Shown in pieces: positions 3,791-37,132 of a DNA stretch of 64,000 nt (position 1 is its first letter; each line of letters begins with the position of its first letter). Location: contig CAXXRD010000002.1 in NCBI GenBank assembly GCA_963663895.2, positions 64,001-128,000 on the forward strand. Reading direction: 5' to 3'. The notes below the pieces were generated by a model. That model was not told where the DNA came from and did no database searches. It saw nothing but the letters and a program-made list of their open reading frames with translations. The translations under genes were made by a program, and so were the position numbers. This DNA is from Dehalococcoidia bacterium (GTDB lineage Bacteria > Chloroflexota > Dehalococcoidia > Bin125).

Positions 3791-3796
3791 CCGCCC

Positions 3797-18240: not shown

Positions 18241-19034
18241 ACGATTTCGAACCCATCAGGCTGGCACAAGTCAGCGCCGGCTACGGACAGCGGATGGTGC
18301 TCGATGGCCTCGACCTAGAACTGAAACAGGGCACGATCACGGCTATTGTCGGGCCGAACGGGTCGGGGAAATCCACCGTGATCCGGGCGATGGCCCGGCT
18401 GCTTCCAACGCGGAGCGGCGTCGTACTCCTCGATGGGCAGGACATCCGGAGCTTCGGATCTCGCGGTATCGCCCGTCTGGTATCCGTCCTTCCCCAATCT
18501 CCATCGAGCCCACCCGGGCTGACGGTTCGCGAACTCGTCGAGTTGGGCCGCTTTCCCCATACCGGTCTGTTCGGACGACTCGGCGCCGAGGGCACACTCG
18601 CCGTGGAGTCTGCACTCACGCTCACGGGTTTGACCGATTTCGCGGAGCGCCCCCTCGACGAACTCTCCGGGGGTGAACGCCAGCGCGCATGGGTCGCGCT
18701 CGCTCTCGCGCAAGGTGCCAGCACTCTCCTCCTGGACGAACCGACCACATTTCTCGATGTCCGGCACCAGTTCGAGGTTCTCGACCTCGTTACGTCCCTC
18801 TGCACGAGCCGCGGCATGACGGTCGTTATGGTGCTCCACGACCTCGTGCATGCAGCGAACTATGCGGATCGTGTCGTCGTGGTGGACAGTGGCCGAATCG
18901 TGGCGGACGGTGCGCCCTCCGCCGTGCTCACCGTCGAACTGATGCGGACGGTGTTCGGCGTGGCGGCGAAGATCTTCACCAACCCCGAATCCGGTCGGAT
19001 GTTCTGCCTGCCGATCGGCACTGGCAGGAGTTGA
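18237..19034 (+). CDS. FhuC/FecE-family ABC ATPase
   Basis: GPNGSGKST, LSGGERQRAW, LLDEPTTFLD, VLHDL. Confidence 0.92.
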   Translation: MNDFEPIRLAQVSAGYGQRMVLDGLDLELKQGTITAIVGPNGSGKSTVIRAMARLLPTRSGVVLLDGQDIRSFGSRGIARLVSVLPQSPSSPPGLTVRELVELGRFPHTGLFGRLGAEGTLAVESALTLTGLTDFAERPLDELSGGERQRAWVALALAQGASTLLLDEPTTFLDVRHQFEVLDLVTSLCTSRGMTVVMVLHDLVHAANYADRVVVVDSGRIVADGAPSAVLTVELMRTVFGVAAKIFTNPESGRMFCLPIGTGRS

Positions 19035-19175
19035 TCTCCGTGCCAACAGGCCACCGCATCACTGCTGCTCTTACTAGCGAACTGGTAGCGGAGTCAGCCC
19101 TCGTTTAGCGAGTGAAAAGCCAGACGACCCAGCCGGATACTCGGCGAAGGTCAACAGGTGTCCAGCTGCTCAGGT

Positions 19176-19261
19176 CCACTGCACGAACATTGGGATCAAT
19201 GTTCCAAAACGACCAACAGGGCAGGGTGCCGTTCTGCTTGACTGTTGGTCTCTCGGGATGA
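19176..19261 (+). repeat. 86-bp direct repeat, copy 2, right of the iron-uptake cluster
   Basis: See 10833-10918. Confidence 0.9.
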
Positions 19262-19480
19262 GATGCGTTAACCGGCTGCTTTCTCTGTGATCGAGGTGCC
19301 CTTGCATGGACCCCGGTCGACCCGCGCTCGGGCGAGGGAGCAGGCAATCCGAGCCTCGCGAGGCCGTCGTTCAAGGCGTGGTCTCACCTGTTGGTGAACA
19401 GAGGCCGACCACAGTTCGTGCCCCTCTTGGTAGGCCTAACTTGGGGATTATACAGGCTAGTGCCCATTCGGAGGGATGAC

Positions 19481-19798
19481 ATGTTAAGGGAATCTGGCTT
19501 GTACGACTTTTGCCAAGACGGCCCTGACCGGGGGAGTTTCAGCATCCGCCGTGGCGGATGGCGACCAACGCGCGTGGAGTTTGCCAACGCACCAAAGACG
19601 CAAGGCGGGTTGGCCGTGCGCGTGCTCGATGTGAGCGGCGGCGAGAGCCATCCCTACCAATGGCAACTGACAGAGGAGCAGAACGCAGCGATCTACGCAT
19701 GGTGCCACGCGGTGATGAAGCAGTTAGGCATGAGGCCGAAGACGAGGATGGTATGGATACCTGGCTTGCACAGGATCGCCCCGTCCGGTGGGCACTAG
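19481..19798 (+). CDS. Hypothetical protein
   Basis: GAGGG upstream of the ATG and protein-like composition; no motif recognised. Confidence 0.4.
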   Translation: MLRESGLYDFCQDGPDRGSFSIRRGGWRPTRVEFANAPKTQGGLAVRVLDVSGGESHPYQWQLTEEQNAAIYAWCHAVMKQLGMRPKTRMVWIPGLHRIAPSGGH

Positions 19799-19852
19799 GC
19801 TATATAAGCCCCCCTAACTTGACGGTAGGCAGTACCACCTTCGAGGTGCTGT

Positions 19853-20071
19853 TCAATCTGTAGCCGTGGGCTCGATGACCACGCGCCCTCCGTCCTCGAC
19901 TTCGATGTACAGGCTGTAGCCATCAAGCAGCCGCATGCCGACGAGCGGCGTCGTGTCGGAGGCATCCGCCTCCGTATACCCGGCTAGGCCATCCCAGAGC
20001 ACGGCCATCTCATAGTAAGGGAATCTCGTCTCCCTGCCATCGGCAAGCGTCGCGCGAGCAAGCCGCGGCTC
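19853..20071 (-). pseudogene. C-terminal fragment of a clan AA aspartic-protease-like gene
   Basis: ATLADGRE..F..Y...VLWDG......A.DTTPLVGMRLLDGYSLYIEVEDGGRVVIE. The N-terminal DTG half is missing and a stop lies upstream. Confidence 0.7.
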
Positions 20072-20774
20072 CTATGGGTCGACTGCTAGTCGCGAGCCTA
20101 CGAGGACAGTGAGTGCGTCCGTTGGACGTTGGATGCTCACGGAGTCCTCGCCCAAGCCAGTCCTGTCAGCATATAATGGCTACACTCAGCCAGAGCGCTT
20201 AGGCACCTGCTCAATTGCGTACCGACCAGCGATCGCTTGCTGCTTAGGCCTGGTCAGCGGCGGAGAGGATCCAGCCCGATGGCTTGCCAGATCGGAATCA
20301 CCACCGATCCAGACAGGAGGAGGAGGGAGTGGCGGAGTCAGCGCCCCACTCTGCGAGACTGGCGAATTCTGAGCACGCACTGATCCAAGCGCGCCGCCCA
20401 GAGGGAAGAAAGTAAGCTGGCGGTACGATCCACCTGCAGCTCTCATGCGGGCAGAGCCGCCCCCGAGCGCGCGACGTGGTACGTCTACCGCTTCAACCTT
20501 CTGAGAGCCGGCGTCGGGCAGCGCGTGTTGACCCCCACCGGACAGGACTCTGCGTGCTGATGCAGGGGCGCTTCAGACATCAGTCGAGGGTGGCAGGGAA
20601 TGGTTCCCGCCATCACTGCGCTGCGATAGAGCCGCTCCAAGGTTGGGTGCCACCTTCCCACGGGTTCGGGTGGAGCGGCCGGCGGGACCCGCAGAGATGC
20701 GGGCTTCCAGCCGGGGGATGGGGAACCCCGACGCAACCGTCGTCGGGAGGCCTCGAGTCGCCGGAGCGCGATCG

Positions 20775-22544
20775 ATGCTGAAGGAGATCCCCCGAAGAGA
20801 TCCGCTAGTCCGAGAGATACTCAAGTGGGCGGATGTGCAGGCCAGCCCGGTGTTGACGCACGAGTCTGCTCCTGGAACGACCTGTCAGGAGAAGGAGTTG
20901 TTGGCGGCGGTGGGCGGTCTAGCCAATGCCGTCTCGATGCGGGCTGACAACAACGGCTCCAGTGTGCCACGCGAGGTGAGGGATTGGTGGGACGCGGCCC
21001 CATCCCCTCCAGCGAATGTCGTCGACAGGGCTTGTAGCGCCTTGAACTCGGGCCGGGACCTGTTCGGCGAGCTCTATGCGGCGATCGTGTCGATGTCTAG
21101 CCGTCGACGGCTAGGCACAGTCTTCACACCGCGCCAATTGACGACACACATGCTCGCTCTCTGCGACGAGTACGGAGTCACCCCGGCCACCGTTGTCGAC
21201 CCTGGAGCGGGCGTCGGCGCCTTCACTTTGGACGCCGCAGCCAAGTGGCAGGTGCCTGTGATCGCGGTGGACCTCAATGTGGCCACGCTCGGCTTTCTTG
21301 CTGCTCGCTGCCACCTTGCCGGCCTCGAGACGTCGACGTACCCCACTCAGAACGAGACCGCGTGTACCGCACCAAGCGGGATTCACCTCGTCTGCGACGA
21401 CTTTCTTACTTGGCTGCCGGACGGCTCTTCTCGAGTACAAGGGCCGACTCTAGTGATCGGGAACCCTCCCTACACCCGGCACCAAGGGATGGACCAGCAG
21501 TCCAAGGCCGCTGCTCGAGCAGCGGCGGGTCCGCTTATTTCCTCCGGACTCGCAGGTATGGCAGCCTATTTCCTCGCGGCGACTCTCCTCCATCTGAAGC
21601 CTGCGGATGCGCTTTGCATGGTCCTCCCCAGTTCTTGGATGCACGCCAAATACGGCCGCGAGATTCGCGACCATCTGTGGCGGCTCACTCATCGAAGCGT
21701 CCGACTCGATGTCTTCCCGCACGACGTGGATGTCTTCCCGCGAGCGAAGGTCGACGCCGTGGTCCTCTTCGTGGGCCCCGAAGCACGGGAGCCAAAGTGT
21801 CTGACCGTCACCGATGCCTCCGTCAGCAGCACGAAGGTAGCCACTGCCCGGGCGGAGCACATAGACCGCCAATTCGAGCAGCCGCCGATGTTTCCCCGGT
21901 TGCCACTCGAGTGGAGTTGTGCGGATGACCAAGAAGCAGACCTTTGGGAGTCTTTCACGGTCCATAGAGGAATTGCTACGGGGATGAACGCGTTCTTCCT
22001 CCTCACCGACGCCGAGGTGGCAGAGCACCGGCTCCCCGATTCAGTATTGGCACCCGTGGTCAGCAGTCTCCGGGGGGTAGACGCTGAGACACTAGACGAA
22101 GCGGCGTTCGAGCGTCTCGGGAGTCAAGAGATGAAGCGCTGGCTCCTGGTAGTCAAGCCAGACGACATCGACATCCCAGAGGTGTCCGCATACCTCAGCC
22201 GCGGGGTTCGCTGCGGGGCCTCTGACGGATTCCTTACGAGGCAGCGAGCACACTGGTTCTCTCTCGAGGATCGCGAGGAGGCTCCACTGCTGCTGCTTCC
22301 TATGACAAAGGGCGACTTCCGTGTGGTAAGGAACCTGAAGGGTGTGAAGCATACGAACAGTCTCTACGGCTTGTACCCACGCTCTGACGATGTCGACGTC
22401 GACGAAGCCGCTCGCTGGCTCCGCGGCGCTAAGGGCCAGCAAGCACTGCGCCAGGTCGCGAGGCGGTATGGTGCTGGCATGCTGAAGCTGGAACCGCGAG
22501 CCGTGGGTTCCACCCGCGTGCCGCGATCTTTCGGCAAGACGTAG
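20775..22544 (+). CDS. N6-adenine DNA methyltransferase (gamma class, TaqI/Eco57I-like)
   Basis: G.VFTP, motif I VDPGAGVGAF, motif IV GNPPY, TRD with RGIATG.NAFF and LKLEP. Start uncertain (20643-20775). Confidence 0.88.
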   Translation: MLKEIPRRDPLVREILKWADVQASPVLTHESAPGTTCQEKELLAAVGGLANAVSMRADNNGSSVPREVRDWWDAAPSPPANVVDRACSALNSGRDLFGELYAAIVSMSSRRRLGTVFTPRQLTTHMLALCDEYGVTPATVVDPGAGVGAFTLDAAAKWQVPVIAVDLNVATLGFLAARCHLAGLETSTYPTQNETACTAPSGIHLVCDDFLTWLPDGSSRVQGPTLVIGNPPYTRHQGMDQQSKAAARAAAGPLISSGLAGMAAYFLAATLLHLKPADALCMVLPSSWMHAKYGREIRDHLWRLTHRSVRLDVFPHDVDVFPRAKVDAVVLFVGPEAREPKCLTVTDASVSSTKVATARAEHIDRQFEQPPMFPRLPLEWSCADDQEADLWESFTVHRGIATGMNAFFLLTDAEVAEHRLPDSVLAPVVSSLRGVDAETLDEAAFERLGSQEMKRWLLVVKPDDIDIPEVSAYLSRGVRCGASDGFLTRQRAHWFSLEDREEAPLLLLPMTKGDFRVVRNLKGVKHTNSLYGLYPRSDDVDVDEAARWLRGAKGQQALRQVARRYGAGMLKLEPRAVGSTRVPRSFGKT

Positions 22545-22559
22545 CGAAGGCGAGTTCGC

Positions 22560-24821
22560 ATGGCGAGGTTCACGGTCGACACGCACCTCTTCTCGGAGTT
22601 GGGCGCCCTGCTCGTCGGCCGCGACAGCACGGCGCTCAATGAACTCGTCAAGAACGCGTATGACGCTGATGCCTCCACGGTGATCGTGCATGGTGAGGGC
22701 TTGGCGGCTGCCGGTGGATCGATTGAAGTGATCGATGACGGCGTAGGGATGACCGCGGAAGCGTTCGAGCGAGGATTCCTTCGGATCGCTTCGCGCGTGA
22801 AGACACTGGGGGAGCGAAAGTCCCCTGTCTTTGGCCGTCGATACACTGGACGGAAGGGGATTGGACGTCTTGCCGCCCACAAACTAGCTTCGCAAGTCGG
22901 CGTGCATTCGGTGCCCGACCCAAGAGTATTCGGATCCGACGCAGTGGGAGTGGAGGCATCGATCGATTGGGACATGATCGAGTCCCTTGAGTCGATCGAT
23001 GAAACCGATGCCGGTATCGATTTGCGTACGCTTCCGGCCAACCCGGGCCCGCATGGAACAACCGTTGCCCTGGGGCGGCTCAGGAGTCGCTGGAGCCCTT
23101 CCATGCTCGCGAGATTCGTCGGCGAGGTGCGCAGCTTCGAGGCCCCTGCGTTCCTAGTCGATCGACTCCCAACCACCACAATCGCGGAGCCCTTGTTGTT
23201 TGAGCAGCCGCGCGTTCGAGACTCATCTGCCGATGATCCGGGGTTTCTCGTACGACTATCAGGAGACCTTGACGTCGGCGATGACTACTGGCAGCAACTC
23301 GCTGAGCGGTGCCAGTGGATTATCGAGATTAAGGCTCGGCAGGGAGAACGGAACGTCGAGTATGCGGTGGGGCCAACCGCGGCCGAGGCCGTCCGCACCC
23401 CGTTAGCACACTTCCAGCACTGGACTATCCCGCACCCCGATCCTGATACAGGCCCGTTCTTCGCCGCTCGTATCTTCGTGAGGGCTACCAGGAGGGTCAC
23501 CGGACCTGTGCGTGCCTTCGCACTCGGTGCAGCCGGCGTGCGCGTGTATATGGAAGGATTCCGTGTTCTTCCCTACGGTGAGAGAGGTGACGACTGGCTA
23601 AAGCTTGACGCGGACTACACACGGCGTCGTCAGCCCTTCGAGCTAGGCGGTCTCTCCGGGCAGCCGCTGGACGAGCCAGTCGAAGAAGAGACGCTCCTCC
23701 GCCTGGCCAACGACAACTACTACGGTGGGGTCTTCCTCACCGACGCCGGTTCACCAATGTTGGAAATGCTCGTGAACCGGGAAGGGTTCATTCCTGGCGA
23801 GGGCTTCGTACACCTAGTGGATCTGGTGCGCAGAGGTATAGACCTGTCGGTGCGCTTGCGTGCGTCTGTGCAATCACAGACTCGGTCGGGACGAGGCTTG
23901 GACGCCGGAGACGATGGGACCGTCGCGCAGCCGGCTCACGTCGAGGAAGCCCTCAAGCGCACACTGGAGGTCATTGGCGACGCGAGGATTCACACGAAAG
24001 AGCTGGGGTCGGATGGCGAGCTGCTCGACGACGCACTAGATCGCACTGCTAGCTCTGTGCGAGATACCCAGAAAGTGCTCTCTGCGGCACGCTCTGAGCA
24101 GCAGAATCTGCGGACTGCCGCAAGCATTGGTACGCAGTTCGCTGCCTTCATCCATGAGATCCATGCGCTGTTGGCACAAGCTCGCGCGGTGGACGCCATT
24201 GCAGAGCGTCTCACCACTGACGATGCCATCCCGCGATCGTCGCGCCAGACCTTACGCGATCTGCGCGATGCAATCGCCGCCCTCGTCCTGCAGCTGGAGC
24301 GGCAGGCGTCGTTCCTGACTGATGTCGTGGGGGCCAACGCTCGCAGACGCAGGCGTCGATTATCGGTCCGGGTGGAGGTCAGTAGCGCCCTTAGGCTGCT
24401 TTCCTCGCGCATCGAACGCAGGGACCAATCAATCGAGATCGATGTTGCCCCTAACCTCAGGACCCCACCGATGTTCAGTTCAGAATGGTTGAGCATTCTG
24501 ATCAACGTCCTCAGCAACGCAGTCAAGGCTGCAGGCGACGGGGGAACCATCCTTGTGAGAAGCAGTGCAACCGATGGGTACTTGCACCTCGAGGTCGCCA
24601 ACACAGGAGAGGCCGTTGACTTGGCAGATGCGGAGCGCTGGTTTCGACCATTCGAGTCCAGCACCGCAGAAATAGACGAAGTCCTCGGGCAGGGAATGGG
24701 ATTGGGGCTCCCTATCGTCCGCCGGATCCTCGATGAGTACGGAGGCTCAGCAGAATTCGTCCCCTCCAAACCGCCCTTCATGACCACTCTTGACATCCGT
24801 CTACCCGAGCGCGCCCGATGA
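22560..24821 (+). CDS. MORC/GHKL ATPase fused to a histidine kinase
   Basis: N-terminal Bergerat motifs ELVKNAYDADA, DDGVGM, GRKGIGR and GTTV; central GFRVLPYG..DDWL and NREGF; C-terminal H-box FIHEI, N-box NAVKA and G2 GQGMGLGL. No TM segments. Confidence 0.88.
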   Translation: MARFTVDTHLFSELGALLVGRDSTALNELVKNAYDADASTVIVHGEGLAAAGGSIEVIDDGVGMTAEAFERGFLRIASRVKTLGERKSPVFGRRYTGRKGIGRLAAHKLASQVGVHSVPDPRVFGSDAVGVEASIDWDMIESLESIDETDAGIDLRTLPANPGPHGTTVALGRLRSRWSPSMLARFVGEVRSFEAPAFLVDRLPTTTIAEPLLFEQPRVRDSSADDPGFLVRLSGDLDVGDDYWQQLAERCQWIIEIKARQGERNVEYAVGPTAAEAVRTPLAHFQHWTIPHPDPDTGPFFAARIFVRATRRVTGPVRAFALGAAGVRVYMEGFRVLPYGERGDDWLKLDADYTRRRQPFELGGLSGQPLDEPVEEETLLRLANDNYYGGVFLTDAGSPMLEMLVNREGFIPGEGFVHLVDLVRRGIDLSVRLRASVQSQTRSGRGLDAGDDGTVAQPAHVEEALKRTLEVIGDARIHTKELGSDGELLDDALDRTASSVRDTQKVLSAARSEQQNLRTAASIGTQFAAFIHEIHALLAQARAVDAIAERLTTDDAIPRSSRQTLRDLRDAIAALVLQLERQASFLTDVVGANARRRRRRLSVRVEVSSALRLLSSRIERRDQSIEIDVAPNLRTPPMFSSEWLSILINVLSNAVKAAGDGGTILVRSSATDGYLHLEVANTGEAVDLADAERWFRPFESSTAEIDEVLGQGMGLGLPIVRRILDEYGGSAEFVPSKPPFMTTLDIRLPERAR

Positions 24822-25921
24822 CGATTCCGCACATCCTGATCGTTGATGACGACCCGGACCGAGCAAGGAAATCGATTGGGCTTGAATTCGTCGCAGACGA
24901 CGCGAATGTTGTTGTCCGGCACCCCCAGGAAATCTCATCAGGTGACTTGGCGAGCTGCACGGTTATCGCCGTAGACCACTACCTGGAGGACTGGCCCGAA
25001 CGGGACCTGCAGGGTCCCGCCATGAACCCCAGAAACGGATTTGCGGTAGCGGCCGTCCTCCGCTCGCAGCTGCCAGTGGACCAACCGGGTCCCGCGATTG
25101 CGATCCTCACTGCCGAGTTGTCTACGCTTGCTGGGACATTGCCGTTGAAGGCCGCCGAGCACCTGCTCGCCTGGCAGCACGATATTGAGTGGGTGTTCCC
25201 CAAGAGCAGCGCAGTCCCACTTCGTCTGATCGCCATGTCCAGAGCCGTCCAGAAGCTCCGAGATGTATGGAGCAGTTCGCTTGAACTGGAGGACCTTGCC
25301 TCGGGCTGGCTCGACCTAAAGGATGTCGACTGGCGCGGTGTAGCGCTGGATCATGTCCTCCAGACCCGTCCGCCCATTCACGCCGTCAGCGCCCAGACCG
25401 CCGGTGCTAGCATCCTGGGGTGGTTCTTGCACCGGGTGCTACCGTACCCCACCTTCTTAACCAACATCTTCTGGACAGCCACCCGTTTGGGCGTTGCTCC
25501 GAGCTGGCTCGAGGCGGAGCTTCAGACGGACAGCGGGCTGTCCACGCGCCTGTCGGGCTGCCAGTACTCGGGGGCTTTCTCGGAGTTCTCGGCCCCGCAT
25601 TGGTGGAGGGCGGGCCTTGCGAACATGATCGCTCAACTCTCGGACGGACAGCCGTTCGATCGGACCGCGCTGCATACGGGGGTTCGTCGCGTCACCTCGG
25701 TCGAGCCGGACTTCTTGACCGAAGAGCATCCTGTTCTCGCGGTCGACCCCGCGACGATGGAGCCGACGCGAATCGTCGAGGTTGACCGGGCGATACGGAT
25801 TAGCCCCGACGGCTGGCCACTCTACGCAGATGACGCTTGGGCATCGGTGGCTGACGCCCTCGACAATCCCGATATCGCCGAGATCGTTCTGGAACAGTCG
25901 CTTCTTGAGGCTCCCGGCTAA
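24818..25921 (+). CDS. Receiver-domain protein with an unrecognised C-terminal output region
   Basis: ILIVDDD, phosphoacceptor-like VDHYL, NGF, ILT, FPK; ATGA overlap with the kinase. Confidence 0.8.
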   Translation: MTIPHILIVDDDPDRARKSIGLEFVADDANVVVRHPQEISSGDLASCTVIAVDHYLEDWPERDLQGPAMNPRNGFAVAAVLRSQLPVDQPGPAIAILTAELSTLAGTLPLKAAEHLLAWQHDIEWVFPKSSAVPLRLIAMSRAVQKLRDVWSSSLELEDLASGWLDLKDVDWRGVALDHVLQTRPPIHAVSAQTAGASILGWFLHRVLPYPTFLTNIFWTATRLGVAPSWLEAELQTDSGLSTRLSGCQYSGAFSEFSAPHWWRAGLANMIAQLSDGQPFDRTALHTGVRRVTSVEPDFLTEEHPVLAVDPATMEPTRIVEVDRAIRISPDGWPLYADDAWASVADALDNPDIAEIVLEQSLLEAPG

Positions 25922-25924
25922 CCG

Positions 25925-26713
25925 ATGACGGATGATCCCCTTCAATTTGACGTGCATGAGCTCATTAGCGAGGTGAAGCTCATGGAGAAGCTGGGCGCGG
26001 CCTTTCTCGAGGAAGGTGCAACCTGTGTGTTGAAGGACGTCGTCGGCCAGCTCGAAAGGCTCCGGTACTGTCGTGACGCGATTACGGTGTCCGTAGGTCC
26101 CGAGTGGCCGATCAGGACAATTGCATCTGACGGCGGGTATGAGCGAGACCACGGCGGCAGCCACAAGGATCTGTTCGCAGAACTAATCTTCCACTGGCGA
26201 CTACGGCCGCTGGGCAACGCGAGCAAGAAACCTCAAGCGAGACGCCGAGTGGAGGTTGCCGGAATCACGTCCACCGTGGCTCGACTGAAGATCAACTACC
26301 AGGGAACGGCGTTTGACGTCGCAAGTTGGCGAATGGAGTTCGGCGACGGCGCAAGCCCGGGGGCCTTTTTTCATGCTCAGATTCCGGACGCGTGGGAGGC
26401 GTGTGATCAGGCCGACCAAGGGAACGGGCCGACGAAGTGGCCCCACTGGTTGCCGGTACCTAGGCTGCCAATACCGGTTCTGACACCGATGCTTGCGTTG
26501 GAGTTCACACTCGCGGAGGTATTCCAAGACCGCTGGCCTGAGCACCTTGCATCGGGCAGGTATGAGGTAGACAAGTGGCGCGCGCTGCAGCAGAACCGCT
26601 ATGTGAGTTACTACGAGTGGCAAAAAGAGAATGCAGGTACATCGGGGCCCGGTTCGCCCATCTTAGCCACAAAGGGCGCGAAGCCAGCTTGGGACTTGTT
26701 CCTCTCCCAGTAG
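25925..26713 (+). CDS. Hypothetical protein, fourth gene of the operon (DUF2290-like pattern by eye)
   Basis: Starts 3 nt after the previous stop; WRMEF.....PG.FFHAQI...PRLPIP.LTP..ALEF.L..VF. Confidence 0.75.
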   Translation: MTDDPLQFDVHELISEVKLMEKLGAAFLEEGATCVLKDVVGQLERLRYCRDAITVSVGPEWPIRTIASDGGYERDHGGSHKDLFAELIFHWRLRPLGNASKKPQARRRVEVAGITSTVARLKINYQGTAFDVASWRMEFGDGASPGAFFHAQIPDAWEACDQADQGNGPTKWPHWLPVPRLPIPVLTPMLALEFTLAEVFQDRWPEHLASGRYEVDKWRALQQNRYVSYYEWQKENAGTSGPGSPILATKGAKPAWDLFLSQ

Positions 26714-27199
26714 TAGGAGGGAGCTGGTCCGGTCGGCAACAGTCCGTGGCACTGCGGGTAGCCGAGTGAGTGGTGCGGACTTCGAGCATCCCCAGCTGCA
26801 GGGTGTTCCGGTAGACCATGAGACGACCCGCAACCAGCTTAGTCGGGTCGATGCGCCAGTAGGGTCGGGAAGCTGAAAGCGTAAGTCGCTCTGCGCTTAT
26901 AGAGCTGCGGGATGGCTCCCCATCGGGTGCCCCCCGGCATCCGGAAGCCAACGCAGGGCTCGGGGCGACGCCAGAGCTGGTCGCAGCAGCGCTACTGAGG
27001 CACCGGCCCGAGGGCGATCGCTCCTAAGGGCCTGTCTACACTTGGCGGCAACGACTAGGCTGTATGGCATGTCGAGGAAATGTGGAAACCCAGCGATCAC
27101 GGGTGAAGCCCCAGCGAGGACGCCCGAACGCCTCTTGTGCGTACCCTCCATCAAGGGAATGCAGCGCTACCATCGGTGGCTTCGATACGGGGATACCTA

Positions 27200-28586
27200 C
27201 AAGTGTGACACCTGCGGGAAGATAGACGACCGCTAGCTTGGTCACGCGAACTCCTCGCGCGCCGCGCCCAGACAAAGCAGGCGGCAGAAGAGGTGCGCGA
27301 AGCGCTCGGGGTCTTCCCGGACGATCTGCTCGCTCGCCTGGGCGACGATGTCCGGGCCGAACTCGGGGAGTACGTCGAGCCATCCACGGAGCGAATCGGC
27401 CATGCCTTCCCGGTAGCGCCGGGGGTGCTCGCCCCGGGCGGGGGCTCCACGCCACGACGACGTACGAACCCGATGGCGTCGTGAGCTTTGAGGCGACATC
27501 ACACGTGGAGGCGCTCGCCAAGGGCGCAGCCATGCTCGGCAGTGAGCCCGTCGCGAACCTCATGGCCGGATGGCTGCGGGGTGAGCCGATCCGATACCAG
27601 ATCAGGAGCATCCTCAACACTGACTGCATCCTGCCGGAACCCCTGTGGCCGAGGAGGGCGTGCGGCTCGAGTCGCTCCCGCTCTCGACCGACCGTCTCAG
27701 CGGATACTTGCCACTGATTGGGGAGCGGTCGCCCGAGCAGTACCTCGGCAGGATGATGTTGGCGATGGATCATTCCGCGTCGCCCGCGCTGTTCCGGCTC
27801 GGCGACGAACAGTCCGTGCGCGCGGAGCGCGCGACGGGCGCCCCGGGTGCCGAACCAGAGGTGGTCTGCCAGGCGCTGGCGATCGAAGCGGACGCCTTCA
27901 CGGAGGTCGCGTTCTCGTGGCCGGACTTCGGGGACCACCTCAGCGTGCTCGGCCTGCGAAGCGGGGATCAAATCTGGTCCACCGCACAGGCCCACTTCCG
28001 ACCCTCGTCATTCCGGAACTACTCCGTGGAGACCGACTACGTGACAGACGTGACGACGCTGACGTTCGAGGACGCGCCGGAGATCGAAGTCGACGGCGAA
28101 CGGCTGGGAGCCGTACTCACCGCCCTTGCGGAGTCCTCGTCCGGCAGTCTCCAGATCGCCGCGTCGCGGTGGCTGCGATCCAAGGACACGTCCCCTCCCC
28201 TCAAAGATCGGTTCATCGATCTGCGGATTGCGCTGGAATCACTGTACTTGCGCGACTTCAAGAACGAGCACAGCCAAGAGATGGGGTTTCGGGTGGCGCT
28301 CTTCAGCGCGTGGCATCTGGGAGCCGATCTCGACGAGAGACGAACGCTCCGCAAGACGCTGCGCGACGCATACCGCGCAGCGTCGAGAGCGGTCCACGAC
28401 GGCGACATCGAATCCGAGCGTAAATCCAGGCGCAAGAATAACGAGAAGCCGCCCCGCCTGTGGCGCGAGAACGAGAAGCTCTTGTCCGAGGCTCAGGACA
28501 TCGTTCGCCAGGGCTTGCTGGCAACGATCGCGAACGGCCCGCCGCGTGACTGGGGCGACCTCGTTCTCGGCGGCGGCCCGACATAG
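27200..28586 (+). pseudogene. ApeA-like/HEPN-domain gene with two apparent frameshifts (~27445 and ~27645)
   Basis: Three overlapping frames join into one protein-like sequence. The C-terminal DRFIDLRIALESLY...FRVAL..AWHLG...AY..ASRAVHDG is a HEPN-like motif with the R replaced. 5' end approximate. Confidence 0.65.
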
Positions 28587-28655
28587 ATCCCGCGCGTACG
28601 CCCGGCAGTGGGCCAGCGCGCGGGCGGCAAGAGAGCCGCGCACACAGCGCTGGGC

Positions 28656-28689
28656 AGGACGCCGCCGCCGGGTCTGGCGGCGGCGTCCT
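28656..28689. terminator. GC-rich hairpin between convergent genes
   Basis: aggacgccgccgccg-ggtc-tggcggcggcgtcct. Confidence 0.65.
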
Positions 28690-28698
28690 CTTGCGTGG

Positions 28699-29245
28699 CT
28701 ACCCGGCGGCGGCCAGCGCCCCCTCGTGTTCTTTATCGAGTGCCCACTCGAGGAGAGAGAACGTCGGAGCCTCGTCCCGACGCTTGCGTGGCGGTTCCTC
28801 CGGCTCATCGGCCATGAACTCCGCCCTCGAGAACAGCGACCGCTCCGCCTCCGGCGCCGCGCCACCGTCCGTGACCGGCTCCGCTGTCGCTCCGGCCCCG
28901 GCCGTCACGGGCTCGGGTTCCGGTGCGGCCCAGCCTTCGTCGGCCAGCAGCGCCTCGGCCTCCGCCGCGACCTGGCGGGCCTGCTAGAAGACCGACTCCG
29001 CCGAACCCGCGTCCTCCTCGCCCGCGACGATCTTGCGTGCTAGGGAAAGCATCAAGTCGTCGCCGTCGTCCCCGTAGGCGGCGAGGCCGTCCTCGGGCAG
29101 CTCCCCCTCGACGGCGAGCGAGGTCTGGAGCTTCTGCGCCACGTGCTTCAGGGCGTCGGCCTGGGGGGGGTATTCCAGTAGGCATGAAGACGACCTGCAC
29201 GGGCTCGCTCTGGCCGATGCGCCGGGAGGCCTTCCGCAACGCGTT
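28699..29245 (-). pseudogene. 3' relic of a large ICE-type SF2 helicase gene
   Basis: LRKASRRIGQSEPVQVVFM (motif VI-like) ... QADALKHVAQKLQTSLAVEGELPEDGL ... SLFSRAEFMADEP ... SLLEWAL; frameshift and internal TAG. Confidence 0.65.
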
Positions 29246-29505
29246 GGACACCGCAACCGTCTCGAACCAACGAGACTATCGACGCAGGTGGACCTCCTCA
29301 TGATCGAGTAGGGAACGGGAGATTGTACGTATCGTGGACCGAACAAGGGGGGCAAGGTTCGGGATGTTCGCGGTCCGCAGGGAACTGTCCACAGTGACAT
29401 GGGAAACGCGCGTTGGCTTTGCCCCGTCTATCCTCGGCAAACATTCCCCCCTGACCACGTCACGAGGCCAGGTACCTCAAATCTGCACGACGCCGGGGAC
29501 CTCCG

Positions 29506-30693
29506 TTGAGCTTGACTAAGCGGCTTCTCGAAGAACAGCTGGAGCGAGGTTGGTCCCTCGTCCCTGACGATCGATACGCTTGCACTGCCTGCGTGGACGA
29601 TGAGGGGCTTGTTGCGGTCATCGAAGCGGAGGCCGAGCACGTCGCATGTTCGTATTGTCGGCGAGCTGGTGCTGAGCCGAACGCCATACCTGTGAATCGG
29701 CTCTTTGAAGTGATCGCTTCAGGCATCCGCTACGAACTGACTGATCCCGCGAACGAACTGCCATCCGACGGCGGTGAGTACGTTTTTGCAGAGGCCATCA
29801 TCGACTCTGACGAATTGCTCGCTTCCCATGTTCCTCTGATCTCCGACGGACTCATCGAGGATTTCATGGACTCCTTCGCTCATCTCGACTGGGTTCGCCG
29901 AGAATTCTTCGCCCTCCCTCAAGACGAGGCATTGATGGAGGGCTGGAAGGCGTTCGTGCGGGAGTCGATTCGCGCTCAAGCAACGCCGGAGCGACCCCCT
30001 GAGGAAATCTATGGGAGCGACATTCAGCCGCAGGAGCTACTCGATCGCCTCGGAACGGCAGTGACCCAGGCCGACGTAGTCCGTTTTCTCCCTGCGGGCA
30101 TGACCATCTACCGGACACGGGTCCATCCGATCGGCTCAGTCGTCAGCGGTGCTGCCGCTCTCGGTGCGCCGACACCTGAACTGGCGACTCTACCGAACAG
30201 GATGAGCCCGGCTGGACGGCCGATGTTCTACGGGGCGCTCGACGAAGAGACTTCCGTCGTAGAGACCCTCATAGAAGAGGAGGGCTACACGGTCACGACC
30301 GGGGCGTTCACCCTTAGCAAAGAGATTGCTGTCCTTGACCTAACGGAGATCCCTGCAGTCTCGAGTCTCTTTGATGAACAGAAGCGGCATGCTCGTCGAC
30401 CGCTTATGTTTCTTCGCGCTTTTGCGGAGGAGGTGTCCAGGCCTATTCAGCGCGATGGTGGAGAGTGCTTAGAGTATGTGCCGACGCAGCGTGTGACCGA
30501 GTACTTCCGGACAAAGTATGAACCACTGAGCGCATCGGTCCTGACGGGCCTGACGTACCGCTCGTCACGGAATGGCCGCCCCTGCGTCGTCCTGTTTGTG
30601 GGGAATGGTGATGCGATCGATCGCGCCGCTCGAAACCCGACTGACGGGCACCTCCTTACGTTGGAGTCACAGTACACTCGCCCAACAGGGTGA
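29506..30693 (+). CDS. Zn-ribbon/HEPN-associated N-terminal domain plus RES domain protein
   Basis: CTAC..CSYC, then YRTR, LGAP, NRMSPAG.PMFYGA, EYVPTQ..TEY and YRSS (R-E-S residues). Confidence 0.85.
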   Translation: MSLTKRLLEEQLERGWSLVPDDRYACTACVDDEGLVAVIEAEAEHVACSYCRRAGAEPNAIPVNRLFEVIASGIRYELTDPANELPSDGGEYVFAEAIIDSDELLASHVPLISDGLIEDFMDSFAHLDWVRREFFALPQDEALMEGWKAFVRESIRAQATPERPPEEIYGSDIQPQELLDRLGTAVTQADVVRFLPAGMTIYRTRVHPIGSVVSGAAALGAPTPELATLPNRMSPAGRPMFYGALDEETSVVETLIEEEGYTVTTGAFTLSKEIAVLDLTEIPAVSSLFDEQKRHARRPLMFLRAFAEEVSRPIQRDGGECLEYVPTQRVTEYFRTKYEPLSASVLTGLTYRSSRNGRPCVVLFVGNGDAIDRAARNPTDGHLLTLESQYTRPTG

Positions 30694-31579: not shown

Positions 31580-33493
31580 ATGCAACGTCATCCTACCCCC
31601 CGATCCGAGCGGGTCAACGAGACCCTGGCCAGGCTGGAAGAGGGCGCCCTCGCCCTCGCCCAGTCCGATCGCTATCGCGACTGGCTCGAGCATCTGGGCC
31701 AGTTCCACCAGTACAGCGTCTCCAACAGCCTGCTGATCTGGCTGCAGCGGCCGCACGCGTCGCGCGTCGCCGGCTTCCAGCGCTGGAAGACGCTCGGCCG
31801 CCACGTCAGGAAGGGCGAGAAGGGGATCAGGATCCTCGCCCCCATCGTGGTCAAGAAGCGGGCCGGCGATGACGACCAGGACGATGACGAACAGCGACGC
31901 GTCGTCACGCTCTTCAAGGTCGTCCACGTCTTCGACATCGCCCAGACCGATGGCGACGCCCTCCCCGAGATCGCCCACACGCTGCAAGGCGTCGCCCCGG
32001 TCGACGCCTACGACCAGCTGGTGGCCGTGGCCCGGACCGAGCGGCTCGCGGTCGAGTTCGAAGCGCTGGGGCCCGATTGCAACGGCTACTACCAGCGCGA
32101 CGCCCGGCGCATCGTCCTGGCGACCGAACGGAGCCAGGCGCAACGCGTCAAGACGCTGGCCCACGAGCTCGCCCATCACTTCACGGAGAGCGACTGCCGC
32201 CGGCCGGAGAAGGAGATCATCGCGGAATCGGTCGCCTACGTGGTCGGCGACGCGCTGGGCTTGGACACGAGCGACTACTCGTTCGGATACGTGGCCGCGT
32301 GGAGCGGCGGCGACGCCGGGCCGATCAAGGAGACGGCCGCGGCCGTCCAGTCGGTCGCGCATCGCCTCCTGGACGCGCTCGAGGGGCCGCAGCCGGCGGC
32401 CGGGGATTCCCCGGCCCCGGCCCCGGTCGCGGCCCCGGCTGCTGAATCCAACAAGGCAGCCACGGGCGGCGCGTTCGATGTCCGCTCGCGTTGCGCGCAA
32501 TGCGGAGCGGCGGCGTCCGATGCCACCGGCCCGCGCGAGCAGCGGCGCTGTCATGCATGCCAGCAAGCGGAAGCGACGGCCGCAGCCAAGGCTACAGCCG
32601 ATGCGCTCGCCAAGACCAAAGCGCAGCCGGCCCCGGCCCGTTGCGAGGATGACGACCACCCGAAGAGCTGTGAGCCCTGGCGCTGTGAGCGCTGCGGCGC
32701 AACGCTGCACACGGTCAAGGATCACACGGCCCGGCTCCTCGCCGAGCACGAGCGCGCTTGCAAGTACAAACCGCGCAAGCGCGCGGCCGGGTACCGCGGC
32801 CCCCGGCGCCAGCGCGCCCTGGAAGAGACGATCGACCCGGCCGAGGGTCTGATCCGCGTGGTCCTGGCCCGCGATGACGTGCAGCCGTGGGGCCAGCTCT
32901 CGCCCATCGTGGGCGTGACGGCCACGTGGGGCGCGGCCATCGACCCGGCCGTGGTCCGGTCCCTGAGCACGCTGGACGGCTGGCAATCGCGCGGGCCCGC
33001 ATGGATGGAAGCGCAGGCCCGGGCCGCCGGATTCGCCCTCACGATGGATGCGTGTCCGGCCCACGGGCGATCGGTCGGGGGAGCCGGCCGCACCTACACG
33101 CGCATGGATTACCGCGTGAAGGCCGCGCAGGACGGCCAGCCATCGCTGCCGGCCGACGCGTGCAGCTGGTGGATCGACCCGGCCAGGAGCGACCAGGTCC
33201 GCCGGGCCGCGTGGGGCGGCATCATCACCAGCTACCAGGACATCCTGGAGCTCGAGGCGATGCGCGACCGCGGTCAGACGACCGTCGCCGAGAATCACGC
33301 GCTCGACGCGTTGACCGAGGAGCATCGCCGCGAGCTTTACGAGATCGCCCTCACGATCGCCCAGGAAGAGGAGCCTTGCCGGCCCGTGGAGATCATCCCG
33401 GGCCGGCCGGAAGGATTTCTCTGCCGCACGGAGCAGGACGACCTCCCGTGCGAGTTCGGCTGCCCCTGCCACGAAGAGGCCCGCGTCGCCTAG
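31580..33493 (+). CDS. ArdC-like ssDNA-binding/zincin polyvalent protein with an extended Cys-rich C-terminus
   Basis: FHQYS.SN.LLI..Q.P.AS.VAGF..WK.LGR.VRKGEKGI.ILAP, VFDIAQT.G, TLAHELAH, E.IAESVAY, YSFGYV..W; then CAQC, CHAC, CERC..H..H and CPCH. Confidence 0.85.
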   Translation: MQRHPTPRSERVNETLARLEEGALALAQSDRYRDWLEHLGQFHQYSVSNSLLIWLQRPHASRVAGFQRWKTLGRHVRKGEKGIRILAPIVVKKRAGDDDQDDDEQRRVVTLFKVVHVFDIAQTDGDALPEIAHTLQGVAPVDAYDQLVAVARTERLAVEFEALGPDCNGYYQRDARRIVLATERSQAQRVKTLAHELAHHFTESDCRRPEKEIIAESVAYVVGDALGLDTSDYSFGYVAAWSGGDAGPIKETAAAVQSVAHRLLDALEGPQPAAGDSPAPAPVAAPAAESNKAATGGAFDVRSRCAQCGAAASDATGPREQRRCHACQQAEATAAAKATADALAKTKAQPAPARCEDDDHPKSCEPWRCERCGATLHTVKDHTARLLAEHERACKYKPRKRAAGYRGPRRQRALEETIDPAEGLIRVVLARDDVQPWGQLSPIVGVTATWGAAIDPAVVRSLSTLDGWQSRGPAWMEAQARAAGFALTMDACPAHGRSVGGAGRTYTRMDYRVKAAQDGQPSLPADACSWWIDPARSDQVRRAAWGGIITSYQDILELEAMRDRGQTTVAENHALDALTEEHRRELYEIALTIAQEEEPCRPVEIIPGRPEGFLCRTEQDDLPCEFGCPCHEEARVA

Positions 33494-33500
33494 AGCCGAA

Positions 33501-33522
33501 AAGCGGCCCGCGCGGGCCGCTT
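33501..33522. terminator. Perfect 22-bp palindrome after the ardC-like gene
   Basis: aagcggcccgcgcgggccgctt. Confidence 0.6.
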
Positions 33523-33761
33523 CCGACCGGGGATGGGCGACCGGCGCTGAACGAGGCAGCCCAGCACGCAAGCGAGGGACGGAGTGCCCGCGATGCACGT
33601 CAACCCAGGAGACCGCATCCCACCATCGGCGAGACCCAGCGGCACGCAAGCGCCATCGCCCGGCGCGCGGGCGCTGCGGGGGCCATCGTCTGCGACCATG
33701 GCGGCCAGGCGCAGGCCCGTTCGCACAGCGGGCCCCGATCCTGGGCGCGCACAGAGAAGGG

Positions 33762-34061
33762 ATGCCGGTGACCGCCATGGAGATCGACGCGCCGCCCTGC
33801 GCGGCGCATGCGTCCACGGGCCGCCGCTGGCAGTGTCCCGACTGCCGGCGGCTGTGGCGGCGGGCCTACCACCGCCAGTACCACAGCCAGCGCCTCAAAC
33901 CCGCCCGCCAGGCGCGCCGCGCCCAGCGGTTGGCGCAGCATCGCTGTACCTACTGCGGCCGGCCGCTGGACGAGGGAGCCCCCTACCAGCGCTGCGCCGC
34001 CTGCCGGGCCTATCTCACCGCCAAGCAGCGCGAATCCCGCGCCCGACGCCGAACGGAGTAA
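33762..34061 (+). CDS. Small basic Cys-rich (Zn-finger-like) protein
   Basis: CAAH, CPDC, CTYC and CAAC; purine-rich RBS agagaaggg. Confidence 0.65.
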   Translation: MPVTAMEIDAPPCAAHASTGRRWQCPDCRRLWRRAYHRQYHSQRLKPARQARRAQRLAQHRCTYCGRPLDEGAPYQRCAACRAYLTAKQRESRARRRTE

Positions 34062-34099
34062 CCCCCGCTCGCACACTCGCGGCATCCCCTACGGCCCGC

Positions 34100-35155
34100 G
34101 TGGATAGGGATGCAACCGGCCACGGAGACGACAGCCCCGCGCTCCGTCTCGTCCGCGTCCCCGACCCGGTCGCCACTGCCACGGAAGGCAACGAGGCATC
34201 GGCCCCCGGCCTGCCGGATCCCCTGGCGGCCGGCTTCGCGGCGCCCGCCCCCGGCATCTCCGAGGAGGCGTTCGCCGCCCATGAGCGCGCGGCTGGCTGG
34301 AGCGCCAACACCTGCCGCGCCTACTGGCGTGCGTGGAGCACGTGGCAGGCCTGGGCCGCTGCCCACGGCGTGGGCGCGCTGCCCGCCCGCTGGCAAGATG
34401 TCCGCGCCTACCTGCTCGAGCGCGCCGCCGCCGGACGCACCCTGGCCACCCTCCGCGCCGACGCCGACGGCATCGCCGCCGTCCACACCACCACCCGCCA
34501 GCCCAACCCCTGCGCCAAGGGCGGAGCCGTGCGGATGGCGTTGACGCGGCTGGCCAAGGGGCGCGGCCGCGCCCCGCGCCAGGTGGCCGCCCTCGACGCC
34601 GCCGCGCTCGCCGCCATCCGCGCCACGGCCGCCCAGCCGCGCCGGGGCACCCGCCGCCGCGAATCGCCGGCCGCCGCCCGCCGGCGGGCCCTGCTCGACT
34701 GCGCCCTCGTGGGGCTGCTCAGCGATGGCGGGCTGCGGCGCTCCGAGGCCGCCGCCCTCCTCTGGGGGGATGTCGCCTGCGCCGACGATGGCTCGGGCCG
34801 CGTCACCGTGCGGCGCTCCAAGACGGACCCCACGGGCGAGGGGGCCGTGGTCGCGGTCACGCGCACCACCATGGAGGCCCTGGCAGCCCTGCGGGACGAG
34901 GCGCCCGACGACGCCCCCGTGATCGGCCTCTCGACGCGCCAGATCGCCCGCCGCATCAAGGCCGCCGCCCTCGCGGCCGGGCTGGGCGACGGCTTCAGCG
35001 GCCACTCCGGCCGGGTCGGCATGGCCCGCCGCATGGTCCGGGCCGGGGCGCCGACGGCCACCGTGCAGCGGCAGGGGCGCTGGAAATCGCCCGCCATGGT
35101 CGCCGCCTACACCCGCGCCGAATCCGCCGCCGAGGCGCTGCGCTTCCTTGAGTAG
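34100..35155 (+). CDS. Cre-like tyrosine recombinase (start uncertain)
   Basis: SAM-like domain (SANT.RAY...W), GLRRSE, RSKTD, GHSGRVG, GRWKS and catalytic Y in VAAY; W in place of the second H, as in Cre. Confidence 0.85.
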   Translation: MDRDATGHGDDSPALRLVRVPDPVATATEGNEASAPGLPDPLAAGFAAPAPGISEEAFAAHERAAGWSANTCRAYWRAWSTWQAWAAAHGVGALPARWQDVRAYLLERAAAGRTLATLRADADGIAAVHTTTRQPNPCAKGGAVRMALTRLAKGRGRAPRQVAALDAAALAAIRATAAQPRRGTRRRESPAAARRRALLDCALVGLLSDGGLRRSEAAALLWGDVACADDGSGRVTVRRSKTDPTGEGAVVAVTRTTMEALAALRDEAPDDAPVIGLSTRQIARRIKAAALAAGLGDGFSGHSGRVGMARRMVRAGAPTATVQRQGRWKSPAMVAAYTRAESAAEALRFLE

Positions 35156-35352
35156 GCCGGGTCGAACGGGCCGCGCACGGCGGTCAGTCGTCCGCCAGCA
35201 CTGCCGCCGCTCCACGCGGTTCAGCCTGCTCCGCTCCGCCTCCCGACTCGGGGCGGTCGTTGTCAGTCGACACCCTCGCTCGGCGCTGGACTCTCGGAGC
35301 GCTGTAGCTGAAAGGGCAGGGCCATCAACGTGCCCAGGCTCGACTCCCCAGG

Positions 35353-37000: not shown

Positions 37001-37132
37001 AGCGGCCTCCGGGGGTCATGGGAGGCCACCATATGCACAGCCATCTGTCGGTTCAAGCGTTATGGGCGGTGCACATCGAAATTGTCATGCCAGGGGCACG
37101 GACGCGGTGTCATGCCCGTTACGCGTATAGCG

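Follow-up and report, generated by a model that had tools for sequence, protein, structure and literature searches.

The closest described counterpart of the locus analysed here is Ambrosia (AbrR-AbrA-AbrB-AbrC-AbrD), which according to a 2025 preprint consists of an XRE regulator, an N6 methylase, a HATPase kinase, a REC-wHTH protein and an HNH nuclease, and which was validated there as protecting P. aeruginosa from phages (bioRxiv 10.1101/2025.09.30.679545). As the preprint describes it, protection is lost with the receiver mutation D60A, and likewise with mutations in each gene; phage propagated on the Ambrosia methylase alone is still sensitive; and infection induces reporters that replace abrA or abrD, the authors' preferred model being transcriptional induction. 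The same source reports the system mainly from Pseudomonadales (76%). A comparative study of 2021 had linked pairs of a GHKL kinase and a receiver (HEF_HK, PF19191, and Response_reg_2, PF19192) to methylases or restriction-modification (R-M), and a regulatory role was proposed for them in that work (Bellieny-Rabelo et al. 2021, PMC8011034). The BbrUII/HgiDII family of GHKL restriction enzymes (NF050001), in turn, belongs to the paraMORC3/Shedu-like class (Iyer 2008, PMC2292703; VcSduA, PMC12137116).

Here we describe four genes, M, K, R and X, in a Dehalococcoidia bacterium (GenBank assembly GCA_963663895.2); the window, i.e., the whole stretch of DNA analysed, comprises 64,000 nucleotides of contig CAXXRD010000002.1. 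Likening the two by gene order and architecture, we regard M-K-R-X as an unstudied variant of Ambrosia and not as a wholly new kind of system. The original prediction had held this exact four-gene set to be experimentally uncharacterised; the literature searched contained no experimental study of a cassette of the X type, but the 2021 pairs and Ambrosia are precedents.

The four genes and their products

The gene structure of the cassette and the domain identities of its products are established. All four ORFs are intact, lie on the same (+) strand and span positions 20775-26713 of the window. M (20775-22544, 589 aa) is followed after a 15-nt gap by K (22560-24821, 753 aa), R (24818-25921) overlaps K by 4 nt (ATGA), and X (25925-26713, 262 aa) begins after a gap of 3 nt, so the ORF coordinates confirm the tight coupling that had been predicted. 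The predicted defence island stood only in part: a type I R-M system and SIR2 do lie upstream, but 12-19 kb away, past about 8 kb of ABC-transporter genes. Downstream of the cassette are HEPN/RES-RES, ArdC-like, integrase and replicase genes, and the cassette itself sits within an element having integrases, a replicase and an ArdC-like gene. Around the operon, scans for promoters, terminators, repeats and Rfam families returned nothing above chance, with no promoter-like site and no convincing repeated operator upstream of M. A search for an XRE regulator was likewise empty in Pfam for the small ORFs at 18689-19108, 19391-19798 and 20109-20372 and for the ORFs in 27036-29043, and the ORF list holds no further HTH gene.

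The product of M is a gamma-class N6-adenine DNA methyltransferase of the Eco57I type. It is matched by Eco57I (1.3e-09) and N6_Mtase (2.6e-05) in Pfam and, over residues 92-583, by the PADLOC model MTase_II PDLC03222 (8.1e-43), and it carries DPGAGVG at 142, NPPY at 230 and its own C-terminal target-recognition region. A TTG start at 20643 would give a possible longer version. M also matches mad2 (1.6e-17), but membership in MADS was rejected because MTase_II models score far better and because K, R and X match no mad model in PADLOC.

K encodes a dual-GHKL protein in which an N-terminal MORC/MutL-like ATPase module (about residues 1-440) is followed by a helical linker, a DHp domain containing H532 and, at the C-terminus, a kinase CA domain. 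Pfam assigns residues 24-118 to HATPase_c_3 (1.5e-14) and residues 645-751 to HATPase_c (3.2e-22); all the N-terminal GHKL motifs are preserved (ELVKNAYDAD, DDGVGM, GRKGIGRLA and GTT), and the H-box, which includes H532, reads FIHEIH. Profile comparisons with the PDB retrieved ZraS (2e-18), MutL (2.1e-05) and MORC2 (6e-04). The N-terminus matches NF050001 in NCBIfam (3.1e-22), and hhalign aligned K 4-353 with residues 3-315 of the BbrUII family (probability 99%, E 5.2e-18). No membrane-like segment was detected, the top Kyte-Doolittle mean over 19 residues being 1.16, and together with the domain, PDB and hhalign matches this corroborates the original prediction of a cytoplasmic protein with a MORC/MutL-type ATPase in the position of a sensor. 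H532-E533, the N-box and the G2 box are invariant in 23/23 aligned sequences, and the G1 box is NTG, not DxG, in 23/23 members; NTG also occurs in the G1 box of one solved kinase, 9m08_C.

R starts with a receiver (REC) domain (residues 1-153) that has D10, D11, D53 and K129. Among 64 sequences compared, D11 and D53 are conserved in all 64, D10 in 58 and K129 in 59, and the acidic pocket expected for a His-Asp relay is thus present in R and conserved among its relatives, as had been anticipated. The output region is made up of HTH-like helices and then a small beta domain, and matches no known family: Pfam, NCBIfam and PADLOC gave nothing for the tail, a profile search of the C-terminal region alone against PDB sequences reached a best E of 0.4 (chance level), the ESM Atlas offered no usable match, and fold searches using the whole protein matched the receiver domain as the sole part. 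Earlier described as a Trp-rich tail of some 230 aa, it does contain 9 Trp, but its length is 213 aa. The accompanying statement that it has no obvious HTH is doubtful, given an HTH-like stretch with the consensus LAARLG and helices at 217-224, 228-235 and 240-248, as judged from alignment and prediction. R223, L224 and G225 are conserved in this stretch, and after it come helices and a hairpin with Y250, G252 and W262-W263. The LAARLG-like stretch and the predicted helices suggest that the tail may hold a wHTH.

X has no match in Pfam, NCBIfam or PADLOC. Its fold is confidently predicted and resembles none that was searched: the best Foldseek hit in the PDB had an E of 0.08, in a whole-protein search that a small HNH core could escape, and the best among viral structures in BFVD had an E of 0.023, with no look-alike. 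The profile of X retrieved designed coiled coils at E 0.005 at most from PDB sequences and otherwise chance matches (E>=0.4). Pfam detected no HNH domain in X or in 56 relatives, and comparison of the X profile with the HNH_2 protein of a sister cassette (locus L064) gave an E of 0.3. The prediction that the four genes include neither a PD-(D/E)xK nor an HNH restriction gene was upheld by Pfam, NCBIfam and PADLOC, and by Pfam for their relatives as well. In the ESM Atlas X falls into unnamed 'hypothetical protein' clusters; a weak lead there to DUF2290 (score 0.89, 15% of members) was unsupported by Pfam scans. An X-like domain was also looked for inside BbrUII-type enzymes and is absent. More distant X-like proteins could be tied to X only weakly (hhalign E 4.8e-4, probability 32%). 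H150 and R180 are the only invariant residues, and an acidic residue at 138, Q152, P179 and Q222 are conserved.

Conservation, spread and exchange of the fourth gene

Conservation was assessed in 550 confirmed relatives on one-genome-per-species contigs, with 74 loci having a full match to K. R follows K in 59 of the 70 loci with room for it, the order K-R-X (X second after K) is kept in 54/66 loci with room, from many phyla, and an M-type methylase adjoins K-R-X in 38 of 41, again counting loci with room. The gene-neighbourhood check suggested by the original prediction therefore shows the four genes to co-occur across genomes as one conserved unit. Cassette genes are found in Actinomycetota, Bacteroidota, Pseudomonadota, Chloroflexota, Planctomycetota, Acidobacteriota and other phyla; closer to the host, R was detected in none of 36 genomes from the host's own family and in 1/24 other families of the class. 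Among plasmid copies, one is borne by a Clavibacter MOBF plasmid, and on a haloarchaeal plasmid a K-receiver pair adjoins an N-6 methylase. The distribution of the cassette is sporadic and mobile, and the cassette has been widely transferred. Full-length homologues of K number more than 2,009, and clustering at 50% identity gives at least 1,740 clusters for X; by these counts the X-type form appears to be the common one.

Sister cassettes have other genes in the fourth slot, namely HNH_2 (L064, 1.6e-15) and EcoRII (L118, 6e-64), and the methylase is exchangeable among them as well, being of the Eco57I type, N6_N4 or C5. The receiver output regions of the EcoRII and HNH_2 variants showed no similarity to that of R when compared as profile against single sequence, an approach of low sensitivity. 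A further locus (L085), considered as a K-R fusion, has two separate ORFs instead. Both the conservation of the cassette and the swapping of its fourth gene are established by these comparisons. X is most likely the effector, judging by gene position alone: the original prediction had named gene 4 or the receiver tail for this part, and the nucleases that occupy the slot in sister cassettes agree with gene 4, but X itself bears no nuclease signature.

Proposed mechanism and competing explanations

We consider M-K-R-X to be probably a horizontally mobile, R-M-like anti-phage cassette of the Ambrosia type, and the reading we find most likely is a restriction-like defence that is gated by a phosphorelay and has X as its effector. 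The MORC/MutL-like ATPase module of K, the same as that which drives BbrUII/HgiDII-type enzymes, would engage DNA or another infection cue and thereby switch the C-terminal kinase core to autophosphorylation on H532, from which the phosphoryl group would pass to D53 of R. Phosphorylated R might then turn on X, either by a direct action on X or through an HTH-like output region that induces the operon, and X, with its invariant His and Arg, would attack the invader, most likely its DNA. M would methylate adenine in a defined motif, a mark that may either protect self DNA or create the target. We favour a role in defence because the cassette is conserved across phyla with its signalling residues kept, because the ATPase of K is homologous to restriction enzymes and nucleases occupy the fourth slot of sister cassettes, and because Ambrosia, a demonstrated defence system, needs its receiver Asp, the distribution of the cassette being sporadic and mobile. 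The NTG G1 box of K, the missing XRE gene, the lack of a nuclease signature in X, the silence of PADLOC on K, R and X and the weak link to distant X-like proteins were counted against it.

In one rival explanation, phosphorylated R may be a winged-helix activator that does nothing but induce the operon on infection, X being constitutively active and possibly directed at M-modified DNA (type IV-like). AbrC reportedly has a wHTH and the abrA- and abrD-replacing reporters respond to infection, according to the preprint, and the R223-L224-G225 stretch of R with the helices and the Tyr, Gly and Trp-Trp hairpin behind it would suit such an activator; however, the C-terminal region of R has no match among PDB sequences or in the Atlas, the DNA 5' of M shows neither promoter-like site nor convincing operator, and an XRE partner was not found. 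We rate gating by transcription alone as possible but unlikely. A classical self/non-self scheme, put forward in the original prediction, has M protecting the host, K sensing unmethylated sites with its GHKL clamp and X being activated post-translationally through the relay; it would make the cassette a true R-M system with a signalling step between recognition and cleavage. The roughly 310 residues of homology between the module of K and the sequence-specific BbrUII/HgiDII enzymes point this way, as does the adjoining methylase with its own recognition region. Since the four genes are translationally coupled, synthesis of X would accompany that of M, K and R, which favours control of the activity of X over control of its production; an output region of R unlike those of the EcoRII and HNH_2 variants would also be expected if output is matched to effector, but those comparisons had low sensitivity. 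The Ambrosia preprint, moreover, reports that phage from a methylase-only host stayed sensitive and that reporters were induced on infection, and we hold the self/non-self scheme to be rather unlikely.

A role outside immunity seems improbable to us. K and R would then tune an orphan methylase in epigenetic control, with X as a signalling accessory such as a phosphatase or phosphotransfer protein acting through H150 and R180, an invariant His and Arg that would fit phosphoryl chemistry; X lacks a nuclease motif, and the 2021 study, in the part bearing on such pairs, suggested regulation (PMC8011034). Against this stand the nucleases in the X slot of sister cassettes, the reported defence function of Ambrosia, and the mobile, sporadic distribution of genes that here lie inside an integrative element.

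It is a tentative and quite unlikely proposal that X is a new effector fold switched on post-translationally by the phosphorylated receiver, with the MORC-type clamp of K reading DNA methylation. If true, this would be a bacterial pathway running from epigenetic reader through histidine kinase and receiver to effector, with a phosphorelay between recognition and attack, and one far commoner than the HNH form, the one studied to date. Of the relatives, Ambrosia alone has been tested; the nuclease it uses is a familiar HNH enzyme, and how it works is not yet settled. The function of X, and whether a MORC-like ATPase can drive a histidine kinase, would bear on how restriction-like systems are regulated and on what prokaryotic MORC-type ATPases sense.

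Comparison with described systems

PADLOC-DB v2.0.0 (library of 2023) holds no system-specific model for K, R or X: K is reached by REase_II models only, through its N-terminus, and R and X by none. Set against classical type II R-M, K, R and X match no known nuclease family in Pfam, NCBIfam or PADLOC, X being a candidate by position. The BbrUII/HgiDII enzymes share with K the N-terminal GHKL module and the next domain, over about 310 residues, but end in a D...ExK nuclease where K has a histidine-kinase transmitter. As a full-length member K falls short, scoring 78.9 bits where the NF050001 cut-off is 550, with only model positions 3-170 matched and hhalign coverage stopping at 315 of 646.

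Detocs (DtcA-DtcB-DtcC), a phage defence based on two-component signalling, combines a TPR-type sensor with a buffer protein that is receiver-only and a receiver-nucleosidase fusion, and is not known to include a methylase. A relay from histidine kinase to receiver for immunity, with an effector downstream of the receiver, is common ground, whereas the TPR-type sensor, the buffer protein and the receiver-nucleosidase are all absent here.

The HEF_HK pairs, as far as the 2021 study describes them, share with K a soluble kinase of HATPase_c_3, DHp and HATPase_c, and we count their proposed descent from paraMORC ATPases as common ground (PMC8011034); both kinases also have a receiver-like gene and a DNA methylase as neighbours. 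By hhalign, however, K and the HEF_HK type have the DHp/CA region alone in common. PF19191 does not match K at E<=0.1 but does recognise two other loci (L083, L084), and PF19192 is absent from R, from all 64 R relatives and from 61 genomes, that of the window included. The HEF_HK examples fetched are larger (kinase 993-1003 aa, receiver protein 555-617 aa) and have a C5 methylase, one also with Vsr and neither with an X gene. Their Response_reg_2 proteins were considered as fusions of R and X, and hhalign of the R and X profiles against one of them gave nothing.

Ambrosia, compared by its published description, has the same core order of N6-adenine methylase, HATPase/histidine kinase, receiver and fourth gene, and both systems are R-M-like while neither is a textbook type II. 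M corresponds to AbrA as an N6-adenine methyltransferase (Eco57I, N6_Mtase, MTase_II, NPPY), K to AbrB at the level of architecture only (HATPase_c_3, H-box and HATPase_c), and R to AbrC in its REC fold, the wHTH of R being putative. No counterpart of the HipB-like XRE regulator AbrR was found near M-K-R-X, and X, without an HNH match, stands in the place of the type IV HNH endonuclease AbrD. Ambrosia is described mainly from Pseudomonadales, whereas the X-type variant occurs in many phyla; the receiver Asp is present in both, as D60 in Ambrosia and as D53 here.

Gene organization and predicted products

The ORF coordinates and spacing bear out the original prediction of four tightly coupled genes on the + strand: M, a methyltransferase (20775-22544, 589 aa); K, a GHKL ATPase-histidine kinase (22560-24821, 753 aa); R, a receiver protein (24818-25921, 367 aa); and X, the fourth protein (25925-26713, 262 aa). 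M and K are separated by a 15-nt gap, K and R share a 4-nt ATGA overlap, and R and X are 3 nt apart. G+C is approximately 0.62-0.64 around the locus, and the window is itself G+C-rich. The roughly 1.7 kb 5' of M (19050-20775) and 2.8 kb 3' of X (26714-29505) contain only ORFs without a family match, and neither region yielded an Rfam match or a promoter-like site above chance.

M matches Eco57I (1.3e-09) and N6_Mtase (2.6e-05) in Pfam, aligns across residues 92-583 with a PADLOC model for type II methyltransferases (8.1e-43), and carries the motifs DPGAGVG at 142 and NPPY at 230. M is an adenine methyltransferase of the gamma class that stands alone and has a C-terminal region of its own.

For K, Pfam places HATPase_c_3 at 24-118 and HATPase_c at 645-751, and no membrane-like segment was found in the protein. 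The motifs of the N-terminal ATPase (E28, N32, D35; D59-G61-G63; G97-K99-G100-G102; G166-T167), the H-box (H532-E533), the N-box and the G2 box are all invariant across 23 aligned members, and in the same 23 the G1 box reads NTG, not DxG (K residues 681-683, window 24600-24608); the solved kinase 9m08_C aligns N-S-G at this position. When the K-family profile was searched, its C-terminal third retrieved histidine kinases (ZraS, 2e-18) and its first 70-85 residues retrieved MutL, MORC2, and PMS2. NCBIfam matched K residues 4-177 to the N-terminus of BbrUII/HgiDII restriction enzymes (3.1e-22), at 78.9 bits vs a curated cut-off of 550, which K thus does not reach. Profile-profile comparison with an alignment of eight fetched BbrUII/HgiDII-family members established homology between K 4-353 and alignment positions 3-315 (probability 99%, E 5.2e-18), and K therefore carries the ATPase engine found in GHKL-type restriction enzymes. 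The BbrUII/HgiDII members terminate in a D526...E540-x-K542 motif; in K, a kinase transmitter stands where those enzymes have their nuclease.

R retrieved no Pfam match. In an alignment of R and 63 relatives (10 of 50 database matches and 53 of 57 locus ORFs), D11 and D53 are conserved in 64/64, D10 in 58/64 and K129 in 59/64, and the AlphaFold2 prediction for R is confident (pLDDT 95.2, pTM 0.92). The remaining 213 residues form a tail with conserved R223-L224-G225 (family consensus LAARLG), Y250, G252 and (R/H)261-W262-W263. The prediction gives this tail several short helices and then a small beta domain, and the helical part may be a helix-turn-helix. Fold searches with whole R were filled by receiver-domain matches, and the tail alone found nothing among PDB sequences or in the Atlas.

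X has no match in Pfam, NCBIfam or PADLOC, and among the 57 members of its family alignment (X, 9 of 48 database matches, and 47 of 49 locus ORFs) none matched a nuclease family. Within this alignment H150 and R180 are invariant; conservation also extends to P179, Q152, Q222 and an acidic residue at 138. The predicted structure is confident (pLDDT 90.0, pTM 0.89) and found no structural match, the best E being 0.082 with Foldseek against PDB and 0.023 in BFVD. When all 1.84 billion representatives were scanned with HMMER, 1,740 clusters passed E<=1e-3, of which 1,382 also passed E<=1e-10, and each of the 150 best matches is a stand-alone protein 227-292 aa long.

Conservation of the cassette and its fourth slot

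Of 8,000 scored candidates, at least 2,009 are K homologues at E<=0.001; those among the matches listed are full length, with identity down to 44%, and their source names indicate several phyla. Related loci were sampled with a single genome for each species. Confirmation succeeded for 550 of the 585 pattern matches, the 80 best loci were retained, and six whose K match was 1,900 nt or shorter were set aside before counting. As counted by HMMs trained on these same loci and run over all stop-to-stop ORFs, R lies after K in 59 of the 70 loci with room in this 74-locus sample (best 80 of 550, minus 6), and X is the second gene after K in 54/66. The four genes do occur together elsewhere: complete K-R-X is present in 54 of 66 loci with room, and an M-type methylase adjoins it in 38 of the 41 with room on both sides. 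On the K-R-X strand, the methylase lies downstream in 22 of these 38 and upstream in 11; on the opposite strand, it lies downstream in 4 and upstream in 1. Modular defence cassettes typically show such an arrangement, in which K-R-X forms a fixed core and M changes position around it.

In most loci that lack R or X, K is still followed by one gene of 390-460 aa and one of 190-280 aa. Nine of these shorter proteins, along with one from L116, have a common motif, G-x-RFE-x-P...H-x-Y-x-HAQ...P-A-F-P-L, which aligns with the X segment W-[HR]-x-[DE]...H-x-Q...P-R in a weak profile match (E 4.8e-4, probability 32%). The fourth slot is occupied by HNH_2 in L064, by Vsr in the C5-methylase cassettes L068, L119 and L124, and by EcoRII in L118 (G697:C24:1-10000), from the order-level genome sample around G061. 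L118 consists of a HipA-like kinase gene, a K-type kinase, a 391-aa receiver protein and a full EcoRII restriction enzyme (EcoRII-N 3.9e-43, EcoRII-C 6.1e-64). The methylase type also varies among these sister cassettes (Eco57I-type, N6_N4, C5). In comparisons against single sequences, which are insensitive, the receiver proteins of the EcoRII variant have only the receiver part in common with R (E 1.3e-4), and those of the HNH_2 variant have no detectable similarity to it. Since known nucleases fill this slot in sister cassettes, we infer from position that X is the putative effector of its own variant.

Mobility and genomic surroundings

Besides the genome from which the window derives, R was found in 1 of 60 relatives, with 0/36 in same-family genomes (2 of them of the same genus) and 1/24 in other families of the class. 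K-type genes were found on 21 plasmid records, 5 at full length. A Clavibacter MOBF plasmid carries the cassette, its four genes all annotated as hypothetical or ATP-binding protein. On the archaeal plasmid pLC1Hm-01 of Halomicrobium sp. LC1Hm, a gene annotated as a response regulator comes after a K-type kinase (27% identity at 99% coverage), and the opposite strand bears an N-6 DNA methylase close by.

Downstream of the cassette are a HEPN/RES N-terminal domain 1 plus RES domain gene (29506-30693, +; 9e-18 and 8.3e-15), which has no PADLOC match and is likely a toxin-type defence or addiction gene; an ArdC-like gene (ArdC-N and DUF6782 metallopeptidase, 31580-33493); a tyrosine integrase (33584-35155, +); a Replicase-family gene (35353-36546, -); and a tyrosine integrase with an Arm DNA-binding domain (37133-38296, -). 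A MiaB-like radical SAM gene (38509-39900) adjoins this integrase/replicase region (31580-38296). The cassette is probably part of an integrative mobile element.

Upstream are ABC transporters, a SIR2 gene, and a type I R-M system with a specificity subunit (1499-2848, +; PADLOC 8.8e-92) and an R subunit (3596-6889, +; HSDR_N, SWI2_SNF2, T1R_D3); an antisense ORF (5249-6949) overlapping the latter appears spurious. The 529-aa SIR2_2 protein (7402-8991, -; PADLOC) matches pAgo-associated SIR2 models (Aga_SIR2-PNTD1-PNTD2, 1.2e-68, residues 25-297) and also PDC-S65 (3.7e-33), with no Argonaute gene evident beside it.

Comparison with known systems

Soluble kinases with HATPase_c_3, HEF_HK and HATPase_c domains have been described beside Response_reg_2 proteins, with 91.6% linkage, in neighbourhoods enriched in R-M genes, chiefly C5 methylases and Vsr (Bellieny-Rabelo et al. 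2021, PMC8011034); a paraMORC origin was proposed, and the study included no experiments. K and R do not match the published Pfam models of these families. Two fetched HEF_HK/Response_reg_2 examples have a kinase of 993-1003 aa, a receiver protein of 555-617 aa and a C5 methylase, with Vsr in one and an X gene in neither, and their kinases share only the DHp/CA region with K. Iyer et al. 2008 (PMC2292703), who defined paraMORCs within R-M contexts, mention neither kinase fusions nor receivers in the excerpted text.

The closest tested system, likened here by description, is Ambrosia (bioRxiv 10.1101/2025.09.30.679545), described as an XRE regulator, an N6 methylase, a HATPase kinase, a REC-wHTH protein and a type IV HNH nuclease. 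According to that account, it defends P. aeruginosa PAO1 from two phage groups, defence is lost on mutating each gene (including receiver D60A), and infection induces reporters in place of abrA or abrD. Most likely, a phosphorelay from H532 of K to D53 of R would turn on X at our locus, either through transcription or by direct action on X, and M may either protect or mark DNA. The original prediction further held that M marks self DNA and K senses unmethylated DNA or R-M inhibition before the relay activates an effector; a self/non-self scheme of this kind is possible; Ambrosia, the sole experimental relative, does not favour it as described, and phage grown on AbrA alone reportedly remains sensitive to Ambrosia. 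No later work on such cassettes was found in the literature searched. By description, the methylase-kinase-receiver core is common to Ambrosia and our locus, whereas Ambrosia has an XRE regulator, none of which was found at the locus, and an HNH nuclease as its fourth protein in contrast to X. The locus is best filed with the Ambrosia kind, as a variant with another fourth protein.
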